This document shows, in pieces, positions 1 to 4,461 of a DNA stretch of 64,000 nt; position 1 is the stretch's first letter, and every line of letters starts with the position of its first letter. The stretch comes from Candidatus Latescibacterota bacterium. GTDB taxonomy: Bacteria; Latescibacterota; UBA2968; UBA8231. The notes below the pieces were generated by a model. That model worked only from the letters and a program-made list of their open reading frames with translations. It did not search any database and was not told where the DNA came from. Location: positions 6,080,001 to 6,144,000 of the forward strand of contig OZ242214.1 of the NCBI GenBank assembly GCA_965206595.1, given 5' to 3'. The translations under genes were made by a program, and so were the position numbers.

Positions 1-1121
1 CGGGCGAGCCGGCCCCGTACGAGGCGGAGCGCGAGCAGTCGACCGAGGCGGCGCGGAAGCGAATCGACGCCGGGCCTCCGCACGTGATCCGCATGAAGAC
101 CCCGCGCGAGGGATCGGTAACGGTCACCGACACGTTGCGCGGGGAGATCCCGTTCGACCTGGCGGGCCTCGACGACCAGGTGCTGCTGAAGTCGGACGGG
201 TTCCCCACCTATCATCTCGCCGTCGTCGTCGACGATCACCTGATGGAGATCAGCCACGTCATCCGCGGCGAGGAGTGGATTCCGTCGACGCCGAAACACC
301 TGCTCCTCTACGACTGGCTGGGCTGGGACCCTCCGGAGCACACCCACCTGCCGCTGCTGCTCAACCCGGACCGCTCCAAGATGTCGAAGCGGCGGAACCC
401 GACCTCCATCGACTTCTACCGCCGCGCCGGGTACCTGCCGGAGGCCCTGCTCAACTACCTGGCGCTGATGGCCTATCCGCCGGGGGAGGGGGGCGAGGAG
501 AAATTCCCGCTGTTCGAGCTGGTCGACCGTTTCGATCTCGGGCGGGTCAACCTCGGCGGCTCGGTGTTCGACCTCGAGAAGCTGAGCTGGCTCAACGGCC
601 GCTACATACGCGAGGATCTCACCGCCGGGGAGCTGCTGGATCGCCTGAAGGAATGGGCCCTGAACGACGGTTTCATCCGCGAGATGATCCCCCTGATGCA
701 GCCGCGCATGCAGACCCTCGGCGACTTCATGCCGGCCTGTTCCTTCTTCTTTGCGCGCGAGGTGGAGCCGCCGGCGGAGGATCTCGTGCCTAAAAAGCGG
801 CAGCCCGCCGAGGCGGCGCAGATGCTGCTGACCGCGGTCTGGGCGCTTCAGGAGGTATCGCCCTGGAATGTCTCCGCGGTCGAGGCGGCGGTTCATGGGG
901 TGAGCTCGTTCTGGGAGTGGCCGGTGCGCGAGGTGACCCGGCCGATGTTTACCGCGCTTATGGGACGGCCGGTCGGGCCGCCCCTGTACGAGTCGATCGT
1001 CCTGCTCGACATCGACCTGACGCGGGCGCGGCTGCAGGCCGCGGTGGGGGTGCTCGGGGGGGTCTCCAGGAAAAAGGAGCGGGCCCTGGAGAAGGAGTGG
1101 TCTTCCGGGGGTGGGAGCTAG
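1..1121 (+). CDS. gltX: Glutamate--tRNA ligase, 5' part outside the window
   Basis: Motifs LLKSDGFPTYHLAVVVDDHLMEISHVIRGEEW and KMSKR; TAG at 1119-1121. Confidence 0.96.
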   Translation, partial: GEPAPYEAEREQSTEAARKRIDAGPPHVIRMKTPREGSVTVTDTLRGEIPFDLAGLDDQVLLKSDGFPTYHLAVVVDDHLMEISHVIRGEEWIPSTPKHLLLYDWLGWDPPEHTHLPLLLNPDRSKMSKRRNPTSIDFYRRAGYLPEALLNYLALMAYPPGEGGEEKFPLFELVDRFDLGRVNLGGSVFDLEKLSWLNGRYIREDLTAGELLDRLKEWALNDGFIREMIPLMQPRMQTLGDFMPACSFFFAREVEPPAEDLVPKKRQPAEAAQMLLTAVWALQEVSPWNVSAVEAAVHGVSSFWEWPVREVTRPMFTALMGRPVGPPLYESIVLLDIDLTRARLQAAVGVLGGVSRKKERALEKEWSSGGGS

Positions 1122-1162
1122 CTCCGGTTACTTCCTGCCGGAGAGGCCCAGGCGTCGAGCAG
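1062..1162 (+). repeat. Junction repeat copy A: true gltX 3' end followed by a degenerate copy of the glnS 3' end
   Basis: 1062-1121 matches 1858-1916; 1124-1162 (CCGGTTACTTCCTGCCGGAGA----GGCCCAGGCGTCG) matches the glnS end from 2754 with a 4-bp deletion. Confidence 0.9.
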
Positions 1163-1250
1163 CCTCCCAACTGGCTCACTCCTACCGAACTCAGCGGTTC
1201 GGTCGGAGACCGTCTTGGCCAGTGGCCGCGAAGCGGGCGGCAGGCACCAG

Positions 1251-1500
1251 TTATGTGGAGTCCGCGCCCGTGATGCAACACTGGGCGAGAGCCGCTTCGT
1301 TTATGTCCTGCAATTCCGGAACGGGCCGCAGTAGCGCGCCAACGGCGGTCGAGAAGTAGGTCTCCAGAATTGGAAAGAAAGCCGTTGTCCTCAGATCGCG
1401 GAGCTGACCGGCGTGCTTGCCACGCGCATGTAGTGTCCCCAAGACGAAGATCTCGACAACATCTCGATACGTGAGGTTACGTGTTTCTTCGATCGCGATG
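1251..1500 (-). pseudogene. C-terminal fragment of an unknown gene
   Basis: Open frame IAIEETRNLTYRDVVEIFVLGTLH...GADST* with no convincing start; abuts the truncated antitoxin. Confidence 0.35.
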
Positions 1501-1530
1501 TTTGTCGGGTGATCAAGTAAGGCGTTGAGA

Positions 1531-1744
1531 CCGGCTCAGACTCTTGGGCGGCTTGTTCGTGAGGGAGCCAAGCTCCTCGAACCCGATTGTGGCGTTGATG
1601 TAGTCACGCAGTACGATCTTGCCGGTATCGACGTCCCCCGCAAGCAGGCACTCGATGCCTTCCTTCAGCAACCCTTCTCGGAAAGCCGAGGTCGCGCTCA
1701 GCGCGGGTCTGCACAGTCTCCTTGAAGTCACGGGTAAGCGGCAT
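1531..1744 (-). pseudogene. N-terminal part of an addiction-module antidote (HI1420-like HTH antitoxin), frameshifted and truncated
   Basis: MPLTRDFKETVQTRAERD / +1 base near 1689 / AFREGLLKEGIECLLAGDVDTGKIVLRDYINATIGFEELGSLTNKPPKSLSR, then similarity ends. Confidence 0.8.
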
Positions 1745-1746
1745 GG

Positions 1747-1860
1747 TCATATCTCCTGTTGCTTGCGACGCTTGTACTCCTGCCAGAGCTCACGGGCATC
1801 CTCGATATCCCTTTGCTGGGGCACTTTGGTTCCACCGCCGAGCAGGACAGTCAGAGAGTC
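1747..1860 (-). pseudogene. C-terminal fragment of an addiction-module killer toxin (HI1419-like, RelE/ParE superfamily)
   Basis: Hand translation [37 protein letters not shown], ending just before the antidote ATG; 5' part replaced by junction repeat B. Confidence 0.75.
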
Positions 1861-1939
1861 TCCAGGAAAAGGAGCGGGCCCTGGAGAAGGAGTGGTCTTC
1901 CCGGGGCAAGAGCTAAGCCTAGGTTACTTCCTGCCGGAG
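1858..1939 (+). repeat. Junction repeat copy B: diverged duplicate of both the gltX and glnS 3' ends
   Basis: GTCTCCAGGAAAA-GGAGCGGGCCCTGGAGAAGGAGTGGTCTTCC...AGCTAA...GGTTACTTCCTGCCGGAG. Confidence 0.92.
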
Positions 1940-2051
1940 TTGGGCTTCGAGCGGTCGATCTCAGGGAATCGCTGTCGCGGTGTTGTAAAGACCCACGTAC
2001 GCCGCTTAGCGAGCCATCAGCACCGCGCCGGGGGTGGGGTTGCGCGGTTTC

Positions 2052-2342
2052 TCAAGCGCTTAATGATCGCGCCACGGTTTCGGGATTTTCCGAAGCAATC
2101 TTGAGCAGAGCTCGGGCAGGACCCTCCGGACGGCGGCGTCCCTGCTCCCAATTCTGCAAGGTAGAGACGCTTACGCCAATCATCAGGGCAAATTCAGATT
2201 GCGATTTATCCAGCTTTTGTCGGATCAGTCGGATATCGGCGGGGTCCATCTGGATCGTGCGTCCTGGCTTCAACTTGCCGCGCTTGATCGCTCCGGCCTG
2301 CTTGACGCTGGCTACAAGTTGGTCAAAGTCGCGCTCATTCAT
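2052..2342 (-). CDS. XRE-HTH antitoxin (HigA-2/NadS-like), intact
   Basis: SQSEFALMIGVSVSTLQNWEQGRRRPEGPARALL HTH motif; ATGA overlap with the upstream toxin stop. Confidence 0.9.
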   Translation of the reverse strand: MNERDFDQLVASVKQAGAIKRGKLKPGRTIQMDPADIRLIRQKLDKSQSEFALMIGVSVSTLQNWEQGRRRPEGPARALLKIASENPETVARSLSA

Positions 2343-2653
2343 GCCAGATACTCCTTTACGAGTTTACTAAGCAGCTTACACTGTTGAGGGGTGAGATCGT
2401 CCTGTCCGCTCTTGCGATACACCCAAAGCATATAAAGAATCTCGGCCGGCTTGTCCCAATAGTAGATCACACGAAGACCGCCCCGTTTGCCAGCATGGGG
2501 CAATTTCCATCTCAGTTTTCTCAATCCACCCGTACGCTGAATTATCTCTCCTGATTCTGGCCGGAGCAGGAGCGCCAGCTGTATTGCCCGGTAGCCTTCA
2601 TCCGATAGTAGGGTCCAGATCTCCTTTGTGAAGATTGGCGTCTCAACGAAGAT
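2339..2653 (-). pseudogene. HigB-2-like RelE/ParE toxin lacking its start codon
   Basis: IFVETPIFTK...IQRTGGLRKLRW...GKRGGLRVIYYW; in-frame TGA (2654-2656) directly precedes the first codon ATC. Confidence 0.8.
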
Positions 2654-2654
2654 T

Positions 2655-2747
2655 CACTTCGAGTTGGAGGCCCTCGTGCTACTGAATCCGGCTGATGACC
2701 TCGAAAAAGTTGCGGGGGTGCGGATTGCCGGACGGACCGAGCCGGCT
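2655..2747 (-). pseudogene. C-terminal fragment of the HI1420-like antidote whose N-terminal part lies at 1531-1744
   Basis: Hand translation SRLGPSGNPHPRNFFEVISRIQ*HEGLQLEV, the expected continuation after KPPKSL in this family. Confidence 0.7.
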
Positions 2748-2757
2748 GTAGAACCGG

Positions 2758-4461
2758 TTACTTCCTGCCGGAGATCCTGGCCCAGGCGTCGCGCAGGGTC
2801 ACGGTGCGGTTGAAGACCAGGCGCCCGTCGCGCGAGTCCGGGTCGACGCAGAAATACCCTAATCTCTCGAACTGAAAGCCGGTTCCCGGGCTGCTCCCGG
2901 CGACGGATGGCTCGAGGCAGCAGCCGTTCAGCACCTGCAGCGAGTCGGGATTCAGGTTGTCCAGCCAGTCCCCGCCCGGCGGCACCGCGGTCGGGTCCTC
3001 GGTTTGGAACAGGCGGTCGTAGAGCCGCACCTCGGCGCCGACGGCGTGCCCCGCCGAGACCCAGTGCAGGGTCGCCTTGACCTTGCGCCCGTCCGGGGAG
3101 CCGCCGCCGCGGGTGGCCGGGTCGTAGGTGCAGCGCAGCTCCGTTACCTCGCCGCCCTCCTTCACTGCTTCCCTGCAGGTGATGTAGTAGGCGTAGCGCA
3201 GCCGCACCTCCCGCCCCGGGGCGAGGCGGAAGAACTTCCTCGGCGGGTCCTCCATGAAGTCGTCGCGCTCGATGTAGAGCTCCCGCGAGAACGGCACCAT
3301 GCGGGTTCCGGCCGACTCGTCCTCCGGGTTGTTGACCGCCTCGAGCTCCTCGCTCTCCCCTTCCGGGTAGTTCTCGATCACCACCTTGAGCGGGTTCAGC
3401 ACCCCCATCACGCGCGGCGCCACCTTGTTGAGATGGTCGCGGACGCAGTGCTCGAGCAGGGCCACCTCGACGTTGTTGACCCGTTTGGCGATTCCGACCT
3501 CCTGCCAGAAACGCCGGATCGCCTCGGGCGGAAAACCGCGCCGCCGCAGGCCGCACAACGTCGGCATGCGCGGGTCGTCCCAGCCGCTGACGTGGCCGTT
3601 CCCGACCAGCTCGGAGAGGCGGCGCTTGGAGGTGATGGTGAAGGTGACGTTGCCGCGGGCGAACTCGATCTGCCGCGACGGGAAGATCCCGAGCGCCTCG
3701 ATGAACCAGTCGTACAGGGGGCGGTGGTTTTCGTAGTCGAGGTCGCACAGCGAGTGGGTGACGCGCTCTATCGAGTCGCTCTGCCCGTGGGCCCAGTCGT
3801 ACATCGGGTAGATGCACCAGGCGTCCCCGGTGCGCTGGTGGGGGACGTGGCGGATGCGGTACATCACCGGGTCCCGCAGGTTGAGGTTGGGCGACGCCAT
3901 GTCGATGCGGGCGCGCAGCACCTTCTCGCCGTCGGCGAACTCGCCGGCGCGCATGCGTGACAGGAGATCGCGGTTTTCCTCGACCGTGCGGTTGCGCCAG
4001 GGGCTTTCCGAGCCGGGCTCGGTCAGGGTGCCGCGCGATTTGCGGATCTGCTCGCCGCTCTGGTCGTCGACGAAGGCCAGGCCCTTGCGCACCAGGTCGA
4101 GGGCCATCTCGTAGAGTTGCTCGAAGTAGTCGGAGGCGTAGTGCTCGTGCTCCCCCCAGTCGAACCCCAGCCAGCGCAGGTCCTCCTTGATGGCGTCGAC
4201 GAACTCCTGCTCCTCCCGGGTGGGGTTGGTGTCGTCGAAGCGCAGGTGGCAACGCCCTCCGAAATCGGCCGCCACCCCGAAATCGATGGCCGCGGCCTTG
4301 GCGTGGCCTATGTGCAGGTAGCCGTTGGGCTCGGGGGGAAAGCGGGTCACTACTTCGCCGTCGTAGCGGCCATTGCGCAGGTCTTCGGCGACCGCGGCGC
4401 GGATGAAGTCCTGGGCGCGGGGGTCGTCTCCGCCGGTCGGGTGGGGTGAAGAGGTGGTCAT
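2758..4461 (-). CDS. glnS: Glutamine--tRNA ligase
   Basis: [34 protein letters not shown] and FQFERLGYF motifs. Confidence 0.97.

Follow-up and report, generated by a model that had tools for sequence, protein, structure and literature searches.

A decaying store of cassette fragments between repeated gltX and glnS stop-codon junctions in a Latescibacterota genome

Genomic islands are found at the 3′ ends of genes (tRNA, tmRNA, and protein genes), where they lie between attL/attR direct repeats, and tandem arrays at a single site are known. In homology-facilitated illegitimate recombination during natural transformation, said to have been described by de Vries and Wackernagel, a conserved gene anchors the incoming DNA at one end, and the other end is joined without homology; to our knowledge, demonstrations are confined to laboratory model bacteria, and the anchor is not usually duplicated. 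For restriction-modification genes, insertion with long target duplication (ILTD) was reportedly described by Nobusato et al. in 2000 (Gene 259:99). The ILTD events presented by Furuta et al. 2010 (PMC2853133) have repeats of 46–423 bp, which align with one unduplicated sequence in a relative that has no insert; they are described there as having no mobility gene, with the mechanism given as unknown. Integron cassettes are also found outside integrons, as attC clusters without integrase (CALIN and SALIN) and through attG insertion (10.1101/2022.09.11.507474), and the main text of that report does not mention target duplications.

Here, we compare these systems with a locus at the start of a 64,000-nucleotide stretch of Latescibacterota DNA, hereafter the window. 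The region is a small, decaying store of cassette fragments wedged between the stop codons of gltX and glnS. Our overall reading, held with a little better than even confidence, is that this store was built by repeated insertion with long target duplication via host recombination.

Anatomy of the repeated junction

The glutamyl-tRNA synthetase gene gltX enters the window on the plus strand (3..1121; its 3′ 372 codons, the start being upstream), and the intact glutaminyl-tRNA synthetase gene glnS (567 aa) lies on the minus strand (2758..4461); both are open reading frames with tblastn matches (for gltX, to relatives). Their stop-to-stop junction is present in 3 copies, A (1062–1162), B (1858–1939), and C (2741–2796, or 2749–2796 if delimited more narrowly), which are 89–96% identical to one another and have start-to-start spacings of 796 and 834 nt. 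The original prediction placed the last codons of glnS at about 1126, 1922, and 2756, and the 18-mer GGTTACTTCCTGCCGGAG occurs at exactly these positions; all 3 of its occurrences in the 7,053,161-base genome are at this locus, compared with none for the reversed control pattern. The predicted repeat of the gltX tail at 1062 and 1858 was recovered as well, with about 60 nt (1062–1121 and 1858–1916) showing 92% identity over 49 nt (family D2) and 96% over 50 nt.

In copy A, a 6-nt spacer separates the real gltX tail (1062–1121) from a dead duplicate of the final ~39 nt of glnS (1128–1162). The gltX stop is at 1119–1121 and the glnS-type TTA at 1128–1130, 6 nt apart. The part of this glnS tail at 1145–1162 (~19 further nt) matches 2779–2796 at 94%, an alignment score reached by only 4 of 2000 shuffles, and the tail carries a 4-nt deletion specific to this strain, the TCCT being kept in sequencing runs X18, X19, and X20. 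Both gene ends are dead in copy B, which joins the last 59 nt of gltX to the last 16 nt of glnS across a 7-nt spacer (TAA at 1914–1916, TTA at 1924–1926); the spacers of A and B thus agree with the 6–7 bp that had been proposed. The C-terminal reading of copy B is SSRGKS before the stop versus SSGGGS in real glnS, also as proposed, and a shuffle test did not support glnS-tail homology in copy B beyond 16 nt. Copy C has 17 nt including TAGAACC followed by the real glnS end (family D1; 26 nt, 92%). The proposed gltX remnant on the left side of copy C has no statistical support: only 7 nt are alike (TAGAACC versus TAGCTCC), and a longer alignment was equaled by 249 of 2000 shuffles. TAGAACC might be what is left of the gltX stop and spacer, but this reading is weak.

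A 10-nt stretch, GGTTACTTCC, is common to all copies, apart from a single C/T change each in J3 and J4. The lengths of the copied tails are scattered (10, 14, 18, 23, and ~39 nt for glnS; ~7, ~40, and 59 nt for gltX). Folding of the junction is not unusual (z = 0.1 to 0.4).

Because short repeats can misjoin contigs and this genome was assembled from a metagenome as a single contig, the repeats could in principle be an assembly artefact. We consider this extremely improbable. In a check set beforehand, contigs from runs of 4 studies were found to tile the array and to span the repeats, each copy being bridged by single contigs (in run X18, record 11 covers 812–1580, record 12 covers 1759–2297, and record 13 covers 2346–2774), and copy B is bridged in this way in 3 runs. 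Run X15 may be the source sample and was therefore counted as not independent; every copy is also bridged by independent contigs from the 3 other studies. In addition, the copies differ from one another, and parts of the layout are common to 2 sister genomes. All 4 runs agree, and none contained a strain whose site was newly empty or held other inserts. Strains from the 3 other studies have the identical array layout and so give no hint that turnover continues; by now the array is fixed and, for the most part, dead.

Contents and cassette origin of the inserts

Both inserts have lower GC content than their flanks (0.52–0.60 versus 0.66–0.72) and carry toxin-antitoxin (TA) DNA on the minus strand, as translations and family models confirmed; both features had been noted in the original prediction. 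To the right of copy A lies a putative attC-type site remnant (1163..1262, minus strand; DNA fold z = −2.2), whose aligned part at 1212–1241 matches a covariance-model-validated attC of sister species G001 (L302 1462–1558) with a score reached by 12 of 2000 shuffles; positions 1163–1211 are left unassigned. The remnant belongs to the cassette gene on its right, a 3′ fragment (1246..1537, minus strand) that has no Pfam or NCBIfam match and is 89% identical to L302 1545–1840, where the homologue is flanked by 2 attC sites. Next on the minus strand is the front part of a putative pair-1 antitoxin gene (1536..1750), frameshifted in translation and without its 3′ end; no family model matched, and the name comes from its position after the toxin. 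The toxin itself, of the RelE/ParE family, is reduced to its last 35 codons, cut at the edge of copy B (1750..1857, minus strand), and being a fragment it falls below the cut-off of NCBIfam TIGR02683 (model positions 69–95 of 95, E = 4e-5).

The unassigned 92 nt between copy B and the second TA pair (1940..2031) showed no attC match, no unusual fold, and no second copy in the genome. Pair 2, of a different family, comprises a NadS-family HTH antitoxin of 96 aa with an intact frame (2052..2342, minus strand; NF041265, 68.9 bits against a cut-off of 60; Pfam HTH_3) and a RelE-like toxin without a start codon (2339..2653, minus strand; PF06296, 24 bits, under the cut-off of 27). Homology of this toxin to intact copies stops at codon 2, and a TGA (2654–2656) occupies the ATG position; other loci in G001, G012, G019, and G016 have intact copies that begin with an ATG and are preceded by a conserved palindrome. 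The detached 3′ end of the pair-1 antitoxin gene follows (2653..2740, minus strand), 900 nt from the front part. The front part runs straight into this piece in sister species G002 (L025 4561–4761) and in the contigs of run X20, and the piece adjoins glnS in all 3 species of the genus (this genome, G001, and G002).

Judged by these sequences, the inserts are fragments of integron-type gene cassettes, mostly type II TA modules. The pair-2 module lies beside covariance-model attC sites at other loci (L041, 31.5 and 28.9 bits; L042, 79.1 bits; and L010), and the G002 array has 3 attC matches on one strand within 1 kb. This genome also has an integron-like locus with an IntI-like recombinase and 5 attC sites beside it. 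Such a recombinase might have used secondary sites of the genome (attG, GWT) within the gene tails to insert the cassettes, with imprecise excision and re-insertion carrying junction pieces within composite cassettes. The motif GTTGGG, which resembles the integron core site (G/TTRRRY, with the slash at the boundary), is found at 2 boundaries, between 1939 and 1940 on the plus strand and at 1163–1171 on the minus strand, so an integron integrase could have made some of the joints; the first boundary reads G/TTGGGC versus G/AT in the real glnS tail, as expected of attG × attC. We nevertheless find it quite unlikely that an integron integrase built the array. The recombinase, although TIGR02249 was the best of 13 NCBIfam matches (223.6 bits), is under the family cut-off of 265 bits and lacks model positions 180–234. 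The attC model finds no site in the window, pair 2 is without both cassette boundaries, and the attC sites adjoining the junction in G002 and G001 are truncated mid-site, not at G/TT. The GTT between 1939 and 1940 is on the strand opposite to the cassette genes, and one G/TTRRRY match among ~8 boundaries and 2 strands is near chance (by our estimate, ~1 in 256 per site). The word duplication is absent from the main text of the report on attG insertion (10.1101/2022.09.11.507474).

Sister-species arrays and the route of insertion

The stops of gltX and glnS lie between 20 nt overlapping and 15 nt apart in 5 of the 17 family relatives examined, and 3 more have gaps of 84–156 nt. The empty-site relatives belong to other genera, with the C-terminal parts of both proteins 55–78% identical to those encoded here, and no genome of this genus (3 species) has an empty junction. 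The ancestral state, with stops that abut or overlap, is the empty site that had been predicted. Junction-flanked inserts vary in number, as was also anticipated: none in G001, 2 in this genome, and 3 in G002, corresponding to 0, 1 (copy B), and 2 internal junction copies. The internal copies of G002 (L025 2420–2470 and 5026–5048, for 4 junction copies in total) have breakpoints and neighbors that differ from those of this genome, and its inserts hold a 383-aa ORF, a HicB-like gene, DUF433, an EVE-like 364-aa ORF, and an intact BrnT/BrnA pair. The arrays of the sister species are independent, insertion was recurrent, and both synthetase genes were always left whole.

This variation bears on a single tandem duplication of a junction plus cassette unit, followed by divergence and cassette replacement. 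The similar copy spacings would fit such an event, and the antitoxin gene halves are in circularly permuted order, which duplication then deletion can yield. Moreover, G002 joins window position 1758 directly to 2022, so the 2 species may have separated only after a window-like layout, copy B included, had arisen. However, the units share nothing past the junction (the alignment of the sequences right of A and right of B was matched by 1581 of 2000 shuffles), the 2 TA pairs are of different families, and the copy at glnS is common to all 3 species while the internal copies are not. With no invariant arrangement among the relatives, and given the other breakpoints in G002, we regard a single duplication as very unlikely.

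The original prediction had proposed a duplication of the attL/attR type. The duplication of the junction stood; precise attL/attR formation by a dedicated integrase was not supported, given the scattered repeat ends, the cut genes, and the lack of any recombinase within 83 kb. Decayed site-specific elements are the corresponding alternative: tyrosine-integrase islets would have used a core site in the spacer or next to it, with an attP mimicking both gene tails, the junction copies being attL and attR, and integrase genes and element ends being deleted later. Integrated islands are classically recognized by direct repeats that contain gene 3′ ends, and 2 successive integrations would fit, with A composed of the host gltX tail and an element glnS tail, B of the gltX tail of element 1 and the glnS tail of element 2, and C of an element 2 remnant and host glnS. 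The 10-nt stretch in all copies could hold the core site, insert number differs between sister species, and scattered repeat lengths are on their own compatible with site-specific integration, because elements sharing a core site can mimic different lengths of flank. Against this, no integrase gene or fragment was found in any of the 3 arrays; among 13 Phage_integrase (PF00589) matches in the genome, the nearest is ~83 kb from the junction, Resolvase (PF00239, serine recombinase) has no match genome-wide, and the nearest DDE transposase ORF is ~9 kb upstream, consistent with the predicted lack of an adjacent integrase or transposase. The joints cut genes (a toxin down to 35 codons, a toxin missing only its ATG, and a split antitoxin gene), so that truncated genes and not element ends lie directly beside the repeats. 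The contents are integron cassettes, which normally move by way of attC, the junction has no unusual structure, and no related element appeared among the matches listed from public metagenome contigs. Decayed elements are thus an unlikely source of the array.

Joining was probably carried out by host recombination and not by a dedicated integrase of the elements. Under insertion with long target duplication, each round would bring in foreign DNA plus a duplicate, 26 to ~100 nt long, of the sequence spanning both stop codons, with at least 2 rounds in this genome and 3 in G002. Since each round copies both stops, gltX and glnS would each always keep a complete end. With scarcely any neutral DNA between the 2 essential genes, no insertion but a duplicative one would survive, and the junction would be copied every time. 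The event itself could be a single Campbell-type crossover between the chromosome and a DNA circle or fragment with a junction copy, a homology-anchored illegitimate joining of DNA taken up from relatives, or entry at a landing pad left by an earlier, short tandem duplication of the junction. The repeat around insert 2 measures only ~26 nt, about the shortest that RecA-type recombination can use. Homologues of ComEC and DprA are present; the same searches match 10 and 11 of 14 control genomes and so lend little weight to DNA uptake. Later deletions would have removed toxin starts, promoters, and attC sites. The identity of 89–96% between copies points to old events, and the breakpoints seen today may have been shifted by deletions since then.

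Other duplicated gene ends around inserts were sought in this genome, as had been advised, and 3 further loci show the same footprint, with direct repeats of 101–162 nt that include gene ends and flank lower-GC inserts; in one of them, a sigma-54 regulator and its kinase are separated by a HipA-like gene and an IS66 transposase. The footprint also recurs at the 5′ end of gltX, which has 2 extra partial copies upstream in this genome, and in G001 a 1.2-kb duplicate of it surrounds a 2.8-kb insert with a GC content of 0.47.

Comparison with described systems

Like genomic islands, the locus has direct repeats that carry the target gene end, and the gene stays whole; unlike them, it has no integrase, its repeat ends vary, truncated genes lie at the joints, and the repeat extends across 2 genes. 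Homology-facilitated illegitimate recombination would likewise leave genes truncated at one joint and copies of gene ends at the second, but here the anchor would have been duplicated. As in CALIN/SALIN and attG insertion (10.1101/2022.09.11.507474), cassettes are found outside an integron with no adjacent integrase, and the 3 attC sites of the G002 array, on one strand within 1 kb, resemble such clusters; in contrast, the array in the window has no detectable attC and its cassette boundaries are not at G/TT. An array on duplicated gene ends had been thought novel, whereas its footprint is already in print as "insertion with long target duplication" (PMC2853133). The two share foreign genes between long direct repeats, a single sequence in a relative without the insert, an insert without transposase or integrase, and a cargo of addictive genes capable of post-segregational killing. 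They differ in that the cargo here is TA and other integron-cassette fragments instead of the restriction-modification genes of the ILTD described there, that the target is the abutting stops of 2 convergent essential genes, and that the event recurred at one site, in the phylum Latescibacterota, to give a nested repeat array.

Repeated gltX and glnS ends and the DNA between them

The genes gltX (3..1121, plus strand, the window beginning inside the gene) and glnS (2758..4461, minus strand, an intact ORF) converge on a segment in which their ends recur. The 18-mer GGTTACTTCCTGCCGGAG, formed by the last codons and the stop of glnS, occurs at 1126, 1922 and 2756, and the last ~60 nt of gltX, present at 1062, are repeated at 1858, as the original prediction had described them. 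All 3 occurrences of this 18-mer in the 7,053,161-base single-contig genome lie within the gltX/glnS locus, and the reversed control pattern has 0. In junction copy A (1062-1162) the real gltX tail is separated by a 6-nt spacer from a dead copy of roughly the final 39 nt of glnS, a match whose score was reached by 4 of 2000 shuffles. In copy B (1858-1939) 59 nt of gltX tail, with a different end peptide, are followed after a 7-nt spacer by 16 nt of glnS tail. Copy C (2749-2796) comprises the real glnS end and, in front of it, 7 nt similar to a gltX stop and spacer. As direct repeats, A and B share ~82 nt and B and C ~26 nt. The GC content between the junction copies is 0.52-0.60, compared to 0.66-0.72 outside.

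An extension of the gltX remnant leftwards from copy C was rejected, since 249 of 2000 shuffles equalled its score. A glnS tail in copy B beyond the 16 nt, or homology of the DNA on the right of A with that on the right of B, was likewise rejected, as 1581 of 2000 shuffles scored as well. Searches of 900-3000 for Rfam families, promoters and terminators gave nothing above chance. Copies A and B fold as ordinary DNA on either strand (z = 0.1 to 0.4), and the junction was therefore rejected as a folded attC-like site; compared by eye with the dif consensus it also looks unlike a dif site, and the Xer/dif idea was set aside.

Logan contigs from the runs of four studies, one run being possibly the source sample of the assembly, tile the region, and each junction copy is bridged by single contigs in three of those runs. 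The array structure is therefore real and stable among close strains. Relative to the genome under study (G000), the other strains show point changes and keep in copy A a TCCT that is lost in G000, and two runs carry 26 extra letters at 1224-1228. Among the contigs of the compared runs, which drop rare variants, neither an insert-free contig nor a junction-to-junction joint was listed. The array is old, fixed and mostly dead.

Insert 1, between copies A and B, contains the 3′ part of a cassette gene without assigned function (1246-1537), a RelE/ParE toxin reduced to its final 35 codons (TIGR02683 positions 69-95 of 95) by a cut at the edge of copy B, and the frameshifted front part of the gene following this toxin, which we regard as its antitoxin. 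The 3′ end that this pair-1 antitoxin lacks is the 88-nt fragment beside glnS (2653-2740), and both antitoxin parts are contiguous in G002, a sister species of the same genus, and in diverged homologues from the contigs of one run. Paralogues of pair 1, sought in G000 for joint microhomology, were not found in the genome.

Insert 2, between copies B and C, holds toxin-antitoxin (TA) pair 2, with an antitoxin of the NadS family (NF041265, 68.9 bits against a cut-off of 60) and a RelE-like toxin (Pfam PF06296, 24 bits, under the cut-off of 27). The 622-nt pair-2 module is also present, with 79-95% identity, at unrelated places in the second sister species, G001, and in the family relatives G012, G019 and G016; at these other loci the toxin has an ATG and a conserved upstream palindrome. 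In the window the toxin homology stops at codon 2, with TGA in place of the ATG. Judged as a type II TA system, pair 2 has an antitoxin above the curated cut-off and a toxin that lacks its start codon, leaving no intact translatable toxin gene. The palindrome, TATACGCCAATGACGTATAG, probably an operator bound by the NadS-type antitoxin, lies just 5′ of the toxin ATG in four genomes (loci L041 2176-2230, L042, L043 and L010) and is absent from the window copy.

The junction in related genomes

We compared the gltX-glnS interval in 17 of the 24 listed relatives of the same family, leaving out G003, G005, G008 and G024 (gltX and glnS on different or short contigs), G012 (genes not adjacent), G020 and G023. 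In each of these 17, gltX and glnS lie next to each other and converge. The stop-to-stop distance is -20, 1, 11, 13 and 15 nt in 5 genomes, 84-156 nt in 3 genomes and 0.5-12.5 kb in 9 genomes. The empty site that had been proposed from the window alone therefore exists as a common compact state, with abutting or overlapping stops in 5 of 17 family relatives. These relatives belong to other genera, and no genome of the same genus has an empty junction. Outside the genus, seven genomes carry ordinary genes (FapA, HEAT/PhyH, LacI and two-component regulators) in gaps of 0.9-12.5 kb, and these gaps hold neither junction copies nor attC, which indicates that the array is peculiar to this genus alone. 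The gaps of the distant relatives show no hotspot outside the genus.

Within the genus, the gap measures ~0.5 kb in G001, where it contains a single frameshifted HTH gene and lacks an internal junction copy, and 4.6 kb in G002, where there are four junction copies. The first of these is the real gltX end followed by 10 nt of glnS tail, the second (internal) has ~40 nt of gltX tail and 14 nt of glnS tail, the third (internal) has 23 nt of glnS tail and no gltX tail, and the fourth is the real glnS end. Between them lie a 383-aa ORF, a HicB-like gene, a DUF433 gene, an EVE-like 364-aa ORF and an intact BrnT/BrnA pair. The 88-nt gene fragment directly adjoining glnS is common to all three species of the genus. 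Copy number, breakpoints and cargo in G002 are unlike those in the window, and the repeated insertion put forward originally is borne out. A single tandem duplication does not fit, since the units share nothing past the junction (the same 1581 of 2000 shuffles) and the G002 copies have other ends.

Pattern scans with the 18-mer in public metagenome and genome contigs returned at least 120 and at least 119 stretches, and 239 loci were compared with the window. Among these 239 listed loci it was matched by the two sister genomes only, and the other hits arose by chance in unrelated organisms; the public collections may contain more relatives than the matches listed.

Integron cassette DNA as cargo

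Elsewhere the pair-2 module is flanked by imperfect palindromes with CTCTAAC...GTTAGAG ends, and an nhmmer profile of these found 9 sites in G000. From a 9-site alignment, which folds with 11 covarying pairs, we built an attC covariance model. It gave 5 matches beside a tyrosine recombinase gene (genome 4482489-4483370), attC at each of the pair-2 module loci L041, L042 and L010, 2 matches around the homologue of 1246-1537 in G001 (locus L302), 3 inside the G002 array (L025 2463-3393) and, with filters off, nothing credible in window 1000-2900. The array cargo is therefore integron-cassette DNA, and in G000 it consists of cassette fragments without their own recombination sites. An attC read by eye at 1163-1270 was not found by the covariance model and is kept as a remnant only; window 1212-1241 aligns to a G001 attC with a score reached by 12 of 2000 shuffles. 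The boundary 1939|1940 reads G|TTGGGC on the wrong strand, and the other boundaries do not fit the cassette G|TT. At least two attC on one strand, the CALIN criterion, are found in the G002 array and not in the window. By the attC test the window array is thus neither an integron nor a CALIN, whereas the G002 array would count as a CALIN.

Two loci outside the window were also observed. A small attC cluster without an integrase, in G001 (contig C11, L302 1462-2257), holds an intact relative of the 1246-1537 fragment, and G000 has an integron-like locus at C1:4482489-4489291 (L294 1490-8292). The latter contains the single IntI-like gene of the genome (4482489-4483370), ~1.6 Mb from the array, which is divergent from at least 5 attC and cassette ORFs, one of them paralogous to the 383-aa ORF of the G002 array. 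The gene encodes a 293-aa tyrosine recombinase whose best-scoring family is integron integrase, with 223.6 bits against a cut-off of 265; model positions 180-234, the IntI-specific part, are missing.

Mode of insertion and comparison with known systems

The same footprint was seen at five other places, two gltX 5′ regions and three further loci. In G000, two partial copies of the gltX 5′ region (404 and ~480 nt) lie at C1:6071303-6073298 (L301), 7-9 kb upstream of the window start; they differ from the real one by 8.2% and 6.6%, respectively, and, in a comparison made with a possible foreign origin in mind, the closest sequence to both is G000's own gltX. Near them are a 70-nt copy of the sequence upstream of gltX, an ORF for a DDE transposase and ~6 kb of lower-GC DNA, in which a Type ISP restriction enzyme is present as a fragment. 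In G001 the gltX 5′ region is directly duplicated over 1.2 kb (L024 358-1583 and 4360-5582, 96% identical, with differences concentrated in the first 270 nt) around a 2.8-kb insert of GC 0.47. This insert has a 447-aa ORF that by eye looks like a P-loop ATPase, followed by a 184-aa ORF, and may be a defence islet.

A self-comparison of the whole genome, restricted to direct repeats that include the terminus of a long ORF, yielded 24 rows, the gltX/glnS locus included; four of the other 23 were viewed and three of them followed. The three are a 162-nt repeat (98.8%) with the end of an M81-family peptidase gene that flanks ~2 kb (L296, G000:C1:2413763-2416031), a 101-nt repeat (94%) with the 3′ end of a sigma-54 response regulator that flanks 3.2 kb (L297, G000:C1:2396406-2399803) and a 125-nt repeat (96.8%) that flanks ~1 kb (L298, G000:C1:6788418-6789707). 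The L297 insert, a HipA-like gene and an IS66 transposase, sits between the sigma-54 regulator and its partner histidine kinase gene; the insert ORFs of L296 and L298 had no family match in Pfam. The self-comparison also returned three long arrays of regularly spaced 30-40-nt exact repeats (G000:C1, ~2114570-2115680, 2912670-2920305 and 6772497-6776160), which look like CRISPR arrays.

The integrase-style, attL/attR mechanism first suggested for the junction array is not supported by the scattered tail lengths, the truncated genes at the joints and the absence of any recombinase within ~83 kb. All junction copies do share GGTTACTTCC, apart from a single C/T change each in J4 and J3 (two of the copies); the ends of the repeats differ and the copies have decayed. 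The dead glnS tails measure 10, 14, 18, 23 and ~39 nt and the dead gltX tails ~7, 40 and 59 nt, and truncated genes adjoin the repeats. A precise site-specific mechanism predicts constant crossovers and intact element ends and is disfavoured, as neither is seen. ORF and family scans revealed no mobility gene in or beside the inserts; the nearest of 13 tyrosine-recombinase matches is ~83 kb away, serine-recombinase matches in the genome number 0, and the DDE transposase 9 kb upstream is outside the array. Without a recombinase gene, the array is not a recognisable integrative island. Moreover, the attC adjoining the junction is cut mid-site in both G001 and G002, so those joints were not made at the integron crossover point.

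A survivorship argument, which we add here, may account for the repeated copying of the junction. As gltX and glnS leave 0-15 nt between them, the only viable insertions would be those that duplicate a stretch across both stops, and we infer that each surviving insertion would add a junction copy. A Campbell-type single crossover with junction-bearing DNA would reproduce the layout exactly, copy A combining the host gltX tail with the incoming glnS tail and copy B the incoming gltX tail with the resident glnS tail. Homology-anchored illegitimate joining would likewise reproduce it, and either route may have been taken. We consider it rather improbable that the copied junction is a working recombination site of an integrase-free cassette system, in which the insert would loop out by host recombination between the copies, pass to a related cell as a circle or a fragment and there rejoin the gltX/glnS junction through one crossover, with the ends of the synthetase genes in the role of attC/attI and integron cassettes being recruited. 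If host recombination alone moves such units, conserved housekeeping genes would be universal docking sites for exchange between relatives, which would explain many "orphan" accessory genes without mobile-element marks. The locus is an example of foreign genes gaining entry to the tightest and best-conserved parts of a genome with the essential genes left undamaged.

Arrays of this kind had been thought new, and the footprint has already been published (PMC2853133) as insertion with long target duplication (ILTD). According to that paper, genes without mobility function lie between direct repeats of 46-423 bp that align to one sequence in an insert-less relative, the cases come mostly from naturally competent species and the mechanism is unexplained. 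All three structural features, direct repeats, an uninterrupted site in a relative and no mobility gene, are present in the array. ILTD thus fits the footprint, and the locus documents a way of inserting genes that is general but unexplained. It extends the ILTD footprint from restriction-modification genes to TA and integron cassettes, to an uncultivated phylum and to nested arrays at a two-gene junction. In ILTD as first described the cargo is a restriction-modification system, whereas the array carries TA and other cassette fragments and no restriction-modification genes; its own features relative to ILTD are thus the cargo, the two-gene target and the nesting.
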